64,000 bases of DNA, taken from assembly GCA_942491995.1 (NCBI GenBank), contig CALOCX010000003.1, positions 139,710 through 203,709 of the forward strand. Reading direction: 5' to 3'. The notes beneath the pieces are model-generated. The model was given only the letters and a program-made list of their open reading frames with translations, did not search any database and was not told where the DNA came from. This document shows positions 814-17,453 of this stretch, piece by piece. Both the position numbers and the translations under genes were made by a program. This DNA comes from an uncultured Gammaproteobacteria bacterium (lineage in GTDB: Bacteria; Pseudomonadota; Gammaproteobacteria; UBA9214). The first letter of the stretch is position 1. Each line of letters starts with the position of its first letter.

Positions 814-2982
814 ATGCCACCGATGAAACTTTTCTATATTGCCGCCTGGCTGGCCATACTCGGGTTCCTCGTCTGGAGCGGAAACCTGCTGGTGAACATC
901 CAGTCGATGGGTGGCGAAACTGCCGAACTGCATCAACTCAGTCTTGACCTGGACTCCCTCGCCGGCGCCTGGCGAGACCTGAATCGGCCCGGCAATGATG
1001 TGCTGGAAAACTATGAAGTCGCGCAACAGCGCGATGCGCTCGGCCTCTATAAACAGCGCTACGACACTATCCATGCTGCCTTGCTGCAGCGCGTGCAGGA
1101 TGACCCTGCGCTGCTGCCGCTCATCGCCGGCCTGGAGCCCACGCGCAGCACCCTCGTTGATCTTGCCGAGGAAGTCCTTGCCCTGTCCGAACAGCGTGAA
1201 GCACTGCGCCTGGCACAGGCACCGGCCGACTTGATCTCGGAAAAAGAAACGGCAGCGGCCAGCGCGATGGCGCGCATGGATCAAACCTCCCAGGATGGCC
1301 TGGATATGATAATTCAGGCGAGCGGGGTCGTTGTCGGGCACGAGAGAGGCCTGGAAGCACTGCAAAGAAAGAACTTTCAGCGCCTCTATATCATGCTGCT
1401 GGTGACACTGCTGGCATCGGCGCTCAGCCTCGAGCTGATTCGGCAAAGCATGCGACAACGGGAAGCACTGCGCGACGCCGCGGTGCGCATCAACACCATT
1501 GTGAACAACGTGGTAGACGGTATCGTGACCGTCGACGCGAGCGGCGCAATAGAATCGATTAACCAGTCCGCGGAGCAGATGTTTGGCTATGCCGCAAACG
1601 AGGTTCTCGGAAAGCCGTTTACCATGCTGCTGCAGGAGTGTTGCCAGGATAGCTATCTGAAGGAACTGCGTAGTAGCAGTGCTGACCATGTGATTCCATC
1701 CCTGTTATCCGGTGACTGTGACGGACTTGGAAAACGCCAGGATGGATCGACCTTCCCCATCGAACTCGCTATCAGCCAGGTCACGGTAAAGGGACAACGG
1801 CTGTTGATCCACATCGTGCGCGATGTCACCGAGCGCAAACTGGCGAACCAGAAACAGCGACTCGCCGCGAGCGTCTTCGAAAACGCCACTGAAGGCATCG
1901 TCATAACGGACGTGGACGGGACCATTCAGTCCGTCAACCCGGCCTACACAACCATCACCCAGCTCAGTGAGGAGGAACTTGTCGGCAAGAACCCGCGCAT
2001 GCTGCAGTCCGGCAAGCATGACCGGGAATTCTATGAACAGATGTGGGCGTCTATCAGCACTGCGGGTCACTGGCAGGGTGAGATCTGGAACCGGCGCAAG
2101 GACGGCGAGATTTTTCCGCAATGGGTGACCATCAATGCCATCAAGGACAGCCGCGGGCGCACCACGAACTACGTCGGGGTTGCCTGGGATATTTCGGAAC
2201 TGAAGGCTTCCCAGCACATGAAGGAGGCGTTCATCACGACCATCAGCCACGAACTGCGCACACCGCTGACCTCCGTGCTTGTGTCCCTGGGAATGCTGAA
2301 GACAAACATGCAGGAGCGCCTGCCCGAACCGGCACAGAAACTGATCGCACTGGCACACAGCAACAGCAGACGCCTGGTGCGGCTGATCAGCGACATCCTG
2401 GATATAGAAAAGATCGAGGCCGGCAAGATGACGTTTCACTTCGAAGCCCTGGAACTGACGGCACTGGTGGAGCGGGTCGTCGCGGACAGCAAGGCATTGG
2501 CGGAACAGGCACAGATCAGCATAACAACGCAAACCCTGGCCACCGATGCCTGGATCAATGGGGATGCCGACCGCCTGATGCAGGCGATAACCAACCTGCT
2601 CTCCAACGCCATCAAGTATTCCCCCCCGGGCGAGCCGGTAGAGGTTGTGGTTGGCGAGCAGGGTCGCATGCTGCGGGTCGAGGTCACGGATCATGGGCCG
2701 GGAATACCCGCTGAGTTTCATGAGCAGATCTTCAAGAAGTTTGCCCAGGCGGGCCGTACGGACGGCGAGCGGCAAGTTGGCACCGGCCTGGGACTGAGTA
2801 TTGCCAAGCTCATCGTGCAACAACACGGTGGCCGCATCGATTTCCAGTCAACCCCGGGCGTGTGCACGACGTTTTACATCGACCTGCCCAGGGCAGAACA
2901 GGATACGCCCACCCTGAAAGATGAGAGCAACCGTGAATCTGCCGGGCAATCTCGTCCTGATAAACAGGCCGGTTTGGGGTAA
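814..2982 (+). CDS. Sensor histidine kinase: N-terminal membrane/periplasmic domain, two PAS domains, HisKA, HATPase_c
   Basis: 722-aa ORF with N-terminal TM helix, second TM LYIMLLVTLLASALSL and H-box HELRTPLTSV. Also NLLSNAIKYSPPGEPVEV and GTGLGLSIAK (G-boxes). PAS-like segments VVDGIVTVDASGAIESINQSAEQMFGY and TEGIVITDVDGTIQSVNPAY. Confidence 0.92.
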   Translation: MPPMKLFYIAAWLAILGFLVWSGNLLVNIQSMGGETAELHQLSLDLDSLAGAWRDLNRPGNDVLENYEVAQQRDALGLYKQRYDTIHAALLQRVQDDPALLPLIAGLEPTRSTLVDLAEEVLALSEQREALRLAQAPADLISEKETAAASAMARMDQTSQDGLDMIIQASGVVVGHERGLEALQRKNFQRLYIMLLVTLLASALSLELIRQSMRQREALRDAAVRINTIVNNVVDGIVTVDASGAIESINQSAEQMFGYAANEVLGKPFTMLLQECCQDSYLKELRSSSADHVIPSLLSGDCDGLGKRQDGSTFPIELAISQVTVKGQRLLIHIVRDVTERKLANQKQRLAASVFENATEGIVITDVDGTIQSVNPAYTTITQLSEEELVGKNPRMLQSGKHDREFYEQMWASISTAGHWQGEIWNRRKDGEIFPQWVTINAIKDSRGRTTNYVGVAWDISELKASQHMKEAFITTISHELRTPLTSVLVSLGMLKTNMQERLPEPAQKLIALAHSNSRRLVRLISDILDIEKIEAGKMTFHFEALELTALVERVVADSKALAEQAQISITTQTLATDAWINGDADRLMQAITNLLSNAIKYSPPGEPVEVVVGEQGRMLRVEVTDHGPGIPAEFHEQIFKKFAQAGRTDGERQVGTGLGLSIAKLIVQQHGGRIDFQSTPGVCTTFYIDLPRAEQDTPTLKDESNRESAGQSRPDKQAGLG

Positions 2983-2992
2983 GGTAATCGCC

Positions 2993-15691: not shown

Positions 15692-16179
15692 TGAAAAGAA
15701 TCGTTTCCGTTATTGCACTGTGCCTGTTGCTCGGCACGGGCACAGCACAGGCCGGGGTCACACTTGAAGCGTTCAAGTTTGAGACCAAGGCAGAAGAACA
15801 ACACTTCAAGGACCTGATCGAGGAACTGCGCTGCCTCGTATGCCAGAACCAGTCGCTGGCCGACTCGGATGCCGAACTCGCCCATGACCTGCGCGCCGAG
15901 GTCTATGACATGATCCAGGCGGGCAACAGTGATGACGAGATCGTCGAGTTCCTGGTCGCTCGCTATGGTGACTTTGTGCTTTACAATCCACCGGTGAAGC
16001 CAGCCAACTACCTCATCTGGTTCGGCCCGTTCGTGCTGCTGCTGGTTGCCGGCTTCCTGCTGCTGCGCGCCATACGCCGCCAGAAACGTACCGCGGCCAC
16101 TGATATTACGCCCGAGCAACGCGCCAGACTGGATGCCGCGCTGGGTAACACCCCGCCTCAACAGGACAAGCAACAATGA
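15688..16179 (+). CDS. ccmH: Cytochrome c-type biogenesis protein CcmH (CcmL/CycL type)
   Basis: Signal peptide, LRCLVCQNQSLADSDAELAHDLR (LRCxxC motif) and C-terminal TM segment. Confidence 0.88.
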   Translation: MMKRIVSVIALCLLLGTGTAQAGVTLEAFKFETKAEEQHFKDLIEELRCLVCQNQSLADSDAELAHDLRAEVYDMIQAGNSDDEIVEFLVARYGDFVLYNPPVKPANYLIWFGPFVLLLVAGFLLLRAIRRQKRTAATDITPEQRARLDAALGNTPPQQDKQQ

Positions 16180-17453
16180 CCGTATTCTGGAGCCTGGCCG
16201 CCGTCATGATGATGGTGGCACTATTGTTTATATTGCCGCCGCTGCTGCGCAAGCGCGAGCTTTCCGCCGTTTCCCGTGACGAACTCAACATCGAGGTCAT
16301 CAGGCAACAGCTTGCCGAACTCGACACCGACCTGGAAGTCGGCAAACTCGACAAGGCGCAGTATGGTGCGGCACGCGCCGATCTCGAGCAGGAACTGCTC
16401 TATGACCTCGCCAGGACCGATCCTGCATCGCGGAAAGCACGCAGCGGGCGCTGGGCAACACTGCTGATTATCCCTGCCCTGCCACTGTGCGCGGTACTGC
16501 TCTACCAGCAACTGGGCTCCGTGGAACTGATCGAACGGCTGCAACAGGCACGGTCGTCGCAACCCCCTGCGGCACAGCAACAGGCACAATCGGCCGCCTC
16601 GATCGATGAAATGGTTGCGCTGCTAGCCGAACGTCTGCAGCAGCAGCCTGACGACCTGAAAGGCTGGGTGATGCTGGCGCGCAGCTACACCATCCTGAAA
16701 CGCTACAGTGAGGCCGAGGCTGCCTATGCGAACGCCCTGCGTCTGGGCGGAGAAAACGCCAACCTGCTGGCCGATTATGCCGACGCCACCGTGATGGCCA
16801 ACAACGGCCGCTTCAACGACAAGGCCGGTGAACTGCTGACCCGGGTACTGGAACTCGACCCCGGCAACCTCAAGGGCCTGTGGCTTGCCGGGCACTGGAA
16901 GAACCAGTCCGGGGACTATGCCGCGGCACTCGACTACTGGCAGCAGGCCGCCGCGAAACTGCCGCCCGGCGGTGAAGATACCGCCGTGATCGCGGAGCAG
17001 ATCAGCAATGTGCAGGCAAAGCTCGGCATCACCGCCGCGCCCGCCGCCACCGTCGCCGCAGCCACGACCGATGCCGCCTCTCCCTCAGCCACAGACAGCG
17101 GCAGCGCTGCGGCACTGAGTGTCAGCGTCTCACTCGACCCGCAACTGGCCGCTGCGGCCGCGGCGGAAGACACCGTGTTCATCTTTGCGCGTGCCACGCA
17201 GGGCCCGCGCATGCCGCTGGCCATCGTCCGCAAGCAGGTAAAGGACCTGCCGGTCACGGTCACGCTGGATGACTCCATGGCGATGATGCCTGCCATGAAG
17301 CTGTCGAATTTCGAGCAGGTGGATATCGGTGCGCGCATTTCGAAATCCGGCAACGCCATGCCAGAGAGCGGTGACCTGCAAGGCATCGTTTCACCGATCG
17401 CGACACAGAGCAGCGAGACCATTCAAGTCACAATCAACAGCAATGTGCCGTAG
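16176..17453 (+). CDS. ccmI: Cytochrome c-type biogenesis protein CcmI (CycH), TPR-containing
   Basis: 425 aa with N-terminal TM helices, then TPR-like repeats (WVMLARSYTILKRYSEAEAAYANALRL...) and an Ala/Pro-rich linker. Confidence 0.8.
   Translation: MTVFWSLAAVMMMVALLFILPPLLRKRELSAVSRDELNIEVIRQQLAELDTDLEVGKLDKAQYGAARADLEQELLYDLARTDPASRKARSGRWATLLIIPALPLCAVLLYQQLGSVELIERLQQARSSQPPAAQQQAQSAASIDEMVALLAERLQQQPDDLKGWVMLARSYTILKRYSEAEAAYANALRLGGENANLLADYADATVMANNGRFNDKAGELLTRVLELDPGNLKGLWLAGHWKNQSGDYAAALDYWQQAAAKLPPGGEDTAVIAEQISNVQAKLGITAAPAATVAAATTDAASPSATDSGSAAALSVSVSLDPQLAAAAAAEDTVFIFARATQGPRMPLAIVRKQVKDLPVTVTLDDSMAMMPAMKLSNFEQVDIGARISKSGNAMPESGDLQGIVSPIATQSSETIQVTINSNVP

Follow-up and report, generated by a model that had tools for sequence, protein, structure and literature searches.

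Gene content and layout of the locus

The stretch of DNA analyzed here, called the window throughout, comprises 64,000 nucleotides of contig CALOCX010000003.1 from an uncultured gammaproteobacterium, and its first 17 kb carry a set of two-component signaling genes, the gene of a sigma-54 activator, a gene for a secreted five-heme cytochrome and a System I (ccm) operon for heme attachment (Table 1). A sequence-only reading of this region had described it as one coherent cytochrome locus, in which a lone CheY-like receiver, encoded between a kinase-regulator pair and the activator, would feed the activator pathway. Every gene listed in that reading was located by open reading frame (ORF) listing and by Pfam and NCBIfam scans. 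On balance, we favor an interpretation of the 17-kb region as three side-by-side modules with separate evolutionary histories, module A (814-4646), module B (4721-9799) and module C (10199-17453), and not as one signaling-to-maturation pathway. The only real regulatory pair in the region is that of the sigma-54 activator and the five-heme cytochrome in module B.

The window was compared with approximately 170 related contigs and loci, bearing labels between L001 and L178. Of these, 85 are genome loci, gathered both by exact look-ups and by a scan based on alignment, and 80 come from metagenomes. Domain calls for window ORFs came from Pfam and NCBIfam scans, and ORFs outside the cytochrome gene were judged for full length against Pfam models over the entire 64 kb. 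Three relatives recur below: L089, a near-identical strain whose contig is 91-97% identical to the window; L098, which is 98-100% identical to the window in the flanks of the cytochrome cassette and 65-75% identical within it; and L092, a more distant relative. An Rfam scan of window positions 1-20000 matched no RNA family. The layout itself divides the genes into more than one transcription unit, with a gap filled by repetitive extragenic palindrome (REP)-like repeats, a pair of convergent genes, terminators, and an insert between ccmE and ccmF.

Table 1. Features of the 17-kb region, with position, strand and basis of assignment
Feature	Position	Strand	Basis
Sensor histidine kinase, membrane; two transmembrane segments, two PAS, HisKA, HATPase_c	814-2982	+	Pfam
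OmpR-family response regulator; Response_reg and Trans_reg_C	2993-3664	+	Pfam
REP-like palindrome cluster, core GTAGGAGCGCCGTC; fills the regulator-receiver gap	3989-4217	.	Repeat count
Stand-alone receiver, 127 amino acids (aa); intact phospho-acceptor pocket	4263-4646	+	Pfam, sequence
Sigma-54 enhancer-binding activator; PAS, AAA+, HTH_8	4721-6157	-	Pfam, motifs
Upstream activator sites, copy 1; six TGTCA/TGACA pentamers, overlapping the activator start codon	6142-6209	.	Pentamer count
Putative sigma-54 promoter, copy 1; TGGCATTGTTCTTGCT	6288-6303	+	-24/-12 match
31-codon fossil ORF, MLTLIKDLLIAIFLVGITLVWVASTHATTLY and stop; signal peptide of internally deleted cytochrome paralogue	6367-6462	+	Alignment
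Terminator-like hairpin and T-run; remnant of deleted paralogue	6533-6563	+	Homologous to 9873-9933 terminator region
Upstream activator sites, copy 2; four TGTCA/TGACA pentamers	6622-6669	.	Pentamer count
Putative sigma-54 promoter, copy 2; TGGCATTGTTCTTGCC	6767-6782	+	-24/-12 match
Secreted five-heme cytochrome gene	6838-9799	+	Signal peptide, heme domain of ~690 aa, PKD, cadherin-like immunoglobulin (Ig) domain, Cys-rich tail
Tandem intrinsic terminators, two hairpins each with a T-run; 3' of cytochrome stop	9873-9933	+	Sequence
TATGAT box, candidate -10 of the ccm operon's own promoter	9996-10001	+	Conservation
ccmABCDE; overlapping stop/start codons	10199-12890	+	Pfam, NCBIfam, motifs
ccmA	10199-10840
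ccmB	10837-11520
ccmC	11522-12262
ccmD	12259-12432
ccmE	12429-12890
25-nt inverted repeat, CCACGGAAGCACACGGAAAAACACG ... CGTGTCCTTCCGTGTGCTTCCGTGG; like a miniature inverted-repeat transposable element (MITE)	12957-13035	.	In ccmE-ccmF spacer
ccmFGHI	13149-17453	+	Pfam, NCBIfam, motifs
ccmF	13149-15152
ccmG	15152-15691
ccmH	15688-16179
ccmI	16176-17453

Conservation of the modules among related loci

The three genes of module A encode a kinase, an OmpR-family regulator and a lone receiver that belongs to a highly conserved family and retains its pocket residues (E8/D9, D54, T82 and K104). In the window the regulator and receiver genes lie 600 bp apart, separated by REP-like repeats. Orthologues of all three (kinase 76%, regulator 90% and receiver 83% identical) occur in L172 and L173, where the trio has lptD on one side and an RND efflux operon on the other; L175-L178 have the genes rearranged as receiver-kinase-regulator, beside zwf and with a gap of 65 bp. 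The kinase orthologues of L172, L173, L175 and L178, 76% identical, are encoded next to orthologues of the regulator and the receiver, and regulator orthologues are 87-90% identical. Co-conservation of the trio thus spans three gene arrangements, that of the window and L089, that of L172/L173 and that of L175-L178, and since both its neighbors and its internal order change, the lone receiver is functionally tied to the kinase-regulator pair, as the sequence-only reading had it. No orthologues of kinase, regulator or receiver were found in 162 other cytochrome loci.

A further proposal of that reading, that the lone receiver passes phosphate into the activator pathway, did not survive the comparison. 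In its full form the model holds that kinase, regulator and lone receiver feed the activator by phosphorelay or as a phosphate sink, and that the activator switches the cytochrome and ccm genes as one regulon. The genes are indeed contiguous both in the window and in near-identical L089, and the linkage of the receiver to the kinase-regulator pair is genuine. However, the parts of a His-Asp-His-Asp relay were not detected by Pfam: the kinase has only PAS, HisKA and HATPase domains, lacks a receiver or HPt domain and is not a hybrid kinase, whereas the activator has only PAS, AAA+ and HTH domains and hence no receiver to phosphorylate. Moreover, outside L089 the trio adjoins the activator in none of 162 loci and has other neighbors elsewhere, the receiver and activator genes are convergent, and the ccm genes sit behind two terminators with a conserved -10 box. 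Since the signaling cassette is not co-conserved with the remainder of the locus, and the ccm genes largely are not, synteny has already largely refuted the model, which we consider very unlikely. What is left of the coherent cytochrome locus is a genuine unit formed by activator, sigma-54 promoter and cytochrome, with the trio and the ccm operon as independent neighbors. Taken as a whole, this is an ordinary locus that has a few details of interest, and it illustrates how adjacency can mislead, three pathway-like modules coming apart once related loci are compared.

Considered separately, module A would be a branched two-component system in which one PAS kinase has two partners, a regulator of the OmpR type and a single-domain receiver; the receiver would most likely compete for or drain the phosphoryl groups of the kinase, or else provide a second output. 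Branched two-component systems with a single-domain receiver include those of the CheY1 phosphate sink of Sinorhizobium and of DivK of Caulobacter. As in those systems, a single kinase is kept together here with one DNA-binding regulator and one receiver that lacks an output domain, whereas chemotaxis or cell-cycle genes are not found nearby.

The sigma-54 activator and its pairing with the cytochrome

Module B is laid out as a putative self-contained sigma-54 regulon. Its activator carries a Walker A motif (GETGTGKE), a Walker B motif (LFLDE), a GAFTGS loop and an HTH_8 domain, and it has a PAS domain as its N-terminal sensor; Pfam detected no receiver domain in it. Within the PAS domain, residues ~80-125 follow the pattern C-x4-SH-x6-PC-x7-CPH-x13-C-x-H, which is invariant in 12 of 12 aligned orthologues and comprises four invariant cysteines plus histidine. 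No curated family matched this cysteine pattern, nor did a profile search of the PDB return a solved structure. We regard the four-cysteine PAS domain as a candidate metal or Fe-S redox sensor, through which the activator may sense its signal directly, be it redox, O2 or metal, by means of a bound metal or Fe-S center.

The activator gene is divergent to a cytochrome gene in approximately 17 related loci. Among loci with a cytochrome heme domain of 78% identity or more and enough upstream sequence, seven of eight have a divergent activator orthologue (50-76% identical); the figure falls to 3 of 13 at 66-78% cytochrome identity and to 1 of 89 below that range. The pairing is conserved within the close subfamily of the cytochrome.

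In overall design the activator resembles the receiver-less activators of the NifA, NorR, TyrR and DhaR classes, with which it shares the succession of sensor, AAA+ and Fis-type HTH domains, the Walker motifs, a GAFTGA-type loop, upstream repeats and divergence from the target gene. Among NCBIfam models it comes closest to NifA and NorR, with scores under the cut-offs of both and alignments confined to the AAA+ part. Unlike members of those classes, it has the four-cysteine pattern in its sensor and a loop that reads GAFTGS. No rpoN gene was seen among the annotated window ORFs, and a literature search for sigma-54 in connection with multiheme cytochromes brought up Geobacter papers only, none of them related to this cytochrome family.

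Duplicated promoters and the fossil paralogue

The sequence-only reading had noted duplicated sigma-54 promoters upstream of the cytochrome gene, and two such elements are indeed present within a duplicated block of ~330 bp. Both are near-perfect -24/-12 elements (TGGCATTGTTCTTGC), and the spacing at 6288 and at 6767 is exact, with GG at -24 and GC at -12 (TGGCAC-N5-TTGCW). The pattern TGGCAY-N5-TTGCW recurs in 12 of 14 orthologous intergenic regions, against ~0.002 occurrences expected by chance per region, and all 13 promoters examined have two to six TGTCA/TGACA pentamers 60-150 bp upstream, where ~0.3 would be expected. The activator would bind these repeats, ~60-150 bp upstream, and open the -24/-12 promoter; together with the cysteine motif, the TGTCA sites provide direct experimental handles.

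The segments 6120-6480 and 6590-6950 can be aligned from the repeats through the promoter and ribosome-binding site to the signal peptide; the frame next to the 31-codon ORF reads AADAVLTGIKF where the full cytochrome gene reads AADVVPTEIQM. The promoter and 5' end are duplicated because a first cytochrome paralogue has been deleted down to 31 codons, and promoter copy 1 would now drive this fossil. Copy 1 is identical in L089, L092 and L098, and the equivalent of copy 2 lies at position 648 of L098, while L092 has a single promoter. The same fossil ORF is found in L089 and, identical in sequence, in L098.

Family and predicted fold of the cytochrome

The cytochrome has an N-terminal signal peptide and five CXXCH motifs (CDNCH, CIRCH, CDTCH, CGTCH and CQSCH), all of them invariant or nearly so in 120 homologues. 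Pfam recognizes an N-terminal three-heme c7-like stretch, barely above threshold, and C-terminal PKD and cadherin-like domains, and approximately 550 residues match no Pfam family. An exhaustive HMMER search delimited a family of 1,635 clusters at 50% identity, distributed over Gammaproteobacteria (including some Shewanella), Nitrospirota, Desulfobulbaceae, Planctomycetota and others. When stitched across its frames (see below), the translation matches intact metagenome proteins of 980-1000 aa, ~73% identical from end to end, along with thousands of relatives at greater distance.

Profile searches against the PDB gave no sequence-level match for the heme domain. An AlphaFold model of the heme domain, computed for homologue P0064 from a 120-sequence alignment, reached a predicted local distance difference test score (pLDDT) of 85 and a predicted template modeling score (pTM) of 0.89, and is beta-rich over residues 439-705; the model itself is heme-free. 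With this model, Foldseek retrieved PDB entry 5ZE8, the low-potential pentaheme cytochrome c552 of Thermochromatium tepidum (E 2.4e-7, target template modeling score 0.62, 11% identity), as the sole match below 1e-3; at the level of sequence no similarity to 5ZE8 is detectable. A first structure prediction, made from 22 sequences, had given a pLDDT of 25-35 for the heme domain and only Ig-like adhesins in the fold search, and was dropped for this domain. It counts against the assignment that the fold match comes from a predicted model of P0064, a short family member 67% identical to the window cytochrome, and not from the window's own protein.

Cytochrome c552, the Geobacter proteins ExtKL and Gsu2801 and proteins of cable bacteria have been united in the PHC family, defined by a pentaheme domain and an Ig-like domain; the family is proposed to be related to archaeal cytochrome nanowires, a role in extracellular or periplasmic electron transfer has been proposed for its members, and the function of c552 is unknown (PMC11976967). 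The family of the window cytochrome shares with PHC proteins the five CXXCH motifs, the signal peptide and the succession of a heme domain and a beta-rich Ig-like domain. In contrast to the 385-aa c552 of Thermochromatium tepidum, its heme domain, of ~690 aa, is nearly twice as long, and the window protein has in addition a PKD module, a cadherin module and an acidic double-disulfide tail. On the strength of the model, the window cytochrome is best placed in the PHC family, as a large member decorated with Ig domains. The target of module B would be a Sec-exported five-heme cytochrome with the fold of T. tepidum c552, and its PKD, cadherin-type Ig and Cys-rich regions suggest a protein displayed on the cell surface or beyond it, where it would exchange electrons. 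The activator-cytochrome pair is clean and widely conserved, and it concerns a cytochrome family that over the greater part of its length lacks a Pfam model and is linked to c552 and ExtKL by fold only. If surface-exposed and strain-variable, the protein is a candidate for exchanging electrons outside the cell in a niche-specific way in marine sediments.

Frameshifts in the cytochrome gene

The five CXXCH motifs and the signal peptide bear out the multiheme cytochrome of the sequence-only reading, in which the gene passed for intact; the ORF is in fact broken. No frame stays open across the gene, which runs through all three frames, with CXXCH motifs in two of them. Frameshift-aware alignment with the best intact homologue revealed at least 14 frameshifts of 1-2 nt (at 7039, 7068, 7316, 7371, 7766, 7839, 8206, 8567, 8593, 9297, 9320, 9372, 9446 and 9517) plus one in-frame stop, which lies within a 9-nt stretch best read as three more single-base deletions. 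The frameshifts are confined to 7039-9517, and every other long ORF of the window (up to 898 codons) is full length. Programmed frameshifting and phase variation were rejected, as there are 14 sites and most lie off homopolymers or simple repeats.

Two explanations, assembly error and gene decay, were weighed. Of 199 residues invariant among 22 homologues (56-87% identity), the frame-corrected cytochrome retains 198, whereas functional family members scored likewise violate 0-27 of them. Base substitutions in bacteria outnumber small indels roughly ten to one. At that ratio, 14 real indels should have been accompanied by approximately 100 or more substitutions, with ~15-20 hits in invariant codons, of which one was observed. 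The damaged stretch coincides with the one segment of the locus in which contigs that elsewhere are 98-100% identical differ, and a sister assembly, L086, is visibly indel-rich. Given the retention of invariant residues, the strain-variable segment and the indel-rich sister assembly, we judge it likely that the frameshifts arose as errors in the assembly consensus, within a strain-variable segment of probably low coverage, and that the cytochrome gene is probably intact in the organism. A gene that by eye had been taken for intact thus proves broken, probably by the assembler.

Other observations tell against this conclusion. Among 241 million metagenome records no near-identical intact allele was found, the best being ~74-81% identical, nor did the other collections searched contain one, so the frameshifts cannot be corrected against independent sequence; and sister strain L089 has lost the cytochrome gene altogether. 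These same facts could indicate a genuine pseudogene in a decaying locus, inactivated in the window as it was deleted in L089, and the restriction of the frameshifts and the stop to this one gene of the window, together with the record of gene loss at the site left by the 31-codon fossil and the L089 deletion, would fit such decay. A pseudogene, however, would hardly have kept all but one of its invariant residues or accumulated indels without the corresponding substitutions, nor would its damage be expected to consist solely of 1-2-nt events, none larger, with a single stop that itself dissolves into 1-nt deletions, and to overlap a strain-variable segment, precisely where the consensus of a mixed population fails. 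Decay is therefore a minority explanation in our assessment, and assembly error the preferred one.

A strain-variable cytochrome cassette

The segment from ~6450 to 9520 varies between strains, being replaced in L098 and L090 and absent in L089. L098 has both promoters and an intact 922-aa cytochrome of a different allele, in which the heme domain is ~63% identical, the middle consists of fn3 and PASTA domains, and the Cys-rich tail, from 9522 on, is near-identical; L090 carries the same allele. L089 lacks window positions 6613-10237 and shows the order activator, promoter, fossil, ccmA. To judge from these alignments, the site between activator and ccmA appears to be a place of cassette turnover.

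The site might tentatively be viewed as a strain-variable slot for secreted PHC cytochromes, placed under the control of a four-cysteine PAS activator that reads redox directly. In such a slot the signal peptide and Cys-rich tail would remain near-identical while the heme and Ig-type domains are swapped or lost, PKD and cadherin domains in the window conceivably giving way to fn3 and PASTA in L098 and L090 and disappearing in L089. The PAS-type sigma-54 activator would, on this speculative account, be one previously undescribed, and the cytochromes relatives of archaeal cytochrome nanowires. If true, an extracellular electron-transfer protein would be undergoing allelic diversification in sediment Gammaproteobacteria. 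The remaining interest of the locus lies in the uncharacterized four-cysteine PAS activator and in the strain-variable cassette.

The spacer between the cytochrome gene and ccmA also differs among strains. A ~200-bp part of it, containing a 24-codon ORF (MKEKYQGAFVNAIYLCDLCVMARK) at 10089-10163, is present in L098 and absent from L089 and L092.

The ccm operon and its relation to the cytochrome

The complete System I operon of the sequence-only reading holds up: all nine genes, ccmABCDEFGHI, are present in the canonical order and with all signature motifs, as in proteobacterial System I generally. CcmA (252 bits against NF010061, cut-off 195), CcmD (65.8 bits against TIGR03141), CcmE (218 bits against NF009729, with HDENY at residue 124) and CcmI (TIGR03142, together with TPR and Ig_CycH) pass curated NCBIfam cut-offs; CcmB scores 258 bits against PF03379, and CcmC carries WGTWWVWD, CcmF WGGWWFWD, CcmG CVSC and CcmH LRCLVC. 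The operon departs from the usual one in the ccmE-ccmF spacer (12891-13148) and in nothing else: this spacer measures 259 bp and bears the inverted repeat, compared with 6-30 bp in L096 and L117, and looks like a MITE-like insertion inside the operon.

Two lines of evidence bear on how the operon is transcribed. Terminators formed by a hairpin and a T-run follow the cytochrome stop not only in the window but also in L092, L096 and L098, while L117 has a hairpin and no long T-run. In addition, a box reading GGTATGAT or GTAGTATGAT precedes ccmA in the window, L089, L092, L096, L098 and L117. The terminators and the conserved TATGAT box make ccm look like a unit with its own promoter, and it would provide ordinary System I heme attachment, transcribed independently downstream of the cytochrome terminators.

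When short contigs are counted as well, a cytochrome of the family lies directly upstream of ccmA in five further contigs of the window's lineage, L090, L092, L096, L098 and L117, whose Ccm proteins are 75-97% identical to those of the window. On the other hand, no ccm genes were found within 10 kb of the cytochrome in any of 80 genome loci, they are absent from most metagenome loci, and only 2 of 106 loci with at least 1 kb of sequence past the cytochrome gene have ccm beyond it; the position of ccm beside the cytochrome is, by this comparison, a habit of this lineage. Distant loci carry instead genes for DsbA-like and TlpA-like proteins, DUF2059, a PpiC rotamase and a second cytochrome of ~1300 aa. 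The recurrence of the cytochrome-ccmA neighborhood, and of DsbA/TlpA-like genes at the same place, is at odds with fully independent modules and hints at a functional link to maturation.

Such a link could take the form of partial coupling, in which ccm has a basal promoter of its own and read-through of the terminators from the sigma-54 promoters boosts heme attachment when the cytochrome is induced. Read-through would explain the lasting adjacency of cytochrome and ccm in the lineage, which holds in six contigs even though the cytochrome allele changes, and the thiol oxidoreductases encoded in the same position in distant loci would be in keeping with it. There is precedent for large secreted multiheme cytochromes encoded beside heme-attachment genes: nrfEFG sits in the nrf operon with nrfA. 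Similarly, the uet cytochrome cluster of Tenderiales carries ccsAB and nrfG (10.1101/2022.05.06.490989). In the window, unlike in the uet and nrf clusters, the neighbor is a full general System I operon behind terminators and not a dedicated lyase in the same operon. Read-through would have to pass two strong hairpin-plus-T-run terminators and a spacer of ~400 bp, and the great majority of loci with the cytochrome family have no ccm genes to be coupled. We therefore consider partial coupling improbable and prefer a ccm operon transcribed from its own promoter.

One sister assembly was not relied upon for the surroundings of ccm. L086 (GCA_942491665.1, CALOBR010000001.1), compared with window 11158-26179, is 96% identical from ccmF on and 78% over ccmB-E, with hemY fused to the middle of ccmB and fragmented ccm ORFs. 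Two alternatives account for this: recombination with a breakpoint at the ccmE/F spacer, or a long-read assembly that is chimeric and rich in indels. It had been considered as a relative (96% identical) with hemCDXY upstream of ccm, and was set aside for the hemY-ccmB join, the fragmented ORFs and the low identity over ccmB-E.

Further observations around the locus

A wider neighborhood was seen in L001 (17222-21160), L117 (2338-6147) and L003 (13508-17512), where activator and cytochrome are accompanied by DsbA-like, TlpA-like, DUF2059 and PpiC rotamase genes and by the second multiheme cytochrome of ~1300 aa. This suggests a wider conserved cluster of cytochrome and folding-factor genes, absent from the window.

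The REP-like palindromic family with core GTAGGAGCGCCGTC is described as genome-wide; the window contains 15 copies, all intergenic, where 0.49 would be expected, at 4025-4216, 17483-17552, 21514-21629, 29615-29683, 43175, 48561, 51411 and 51520. Directly 3' of the ccmI stop, two of these copies (17483-17552) overlap the listed GTG start of an alpha/beta-hydrolase ORF (17459-18412), whose true start therefore probably lies further downstream.

Elsewhere in the window, intact genes were found for a Hox-type NAD-reducing [NiFe] hydrogenase (HoxF-like, HoxU-like and large subunit; 38429-43073) and for the A and B subunits of a V-type ATPase (59917-63085), two sets that fit a chemolithotrophic sediment gammaproteobacterium.

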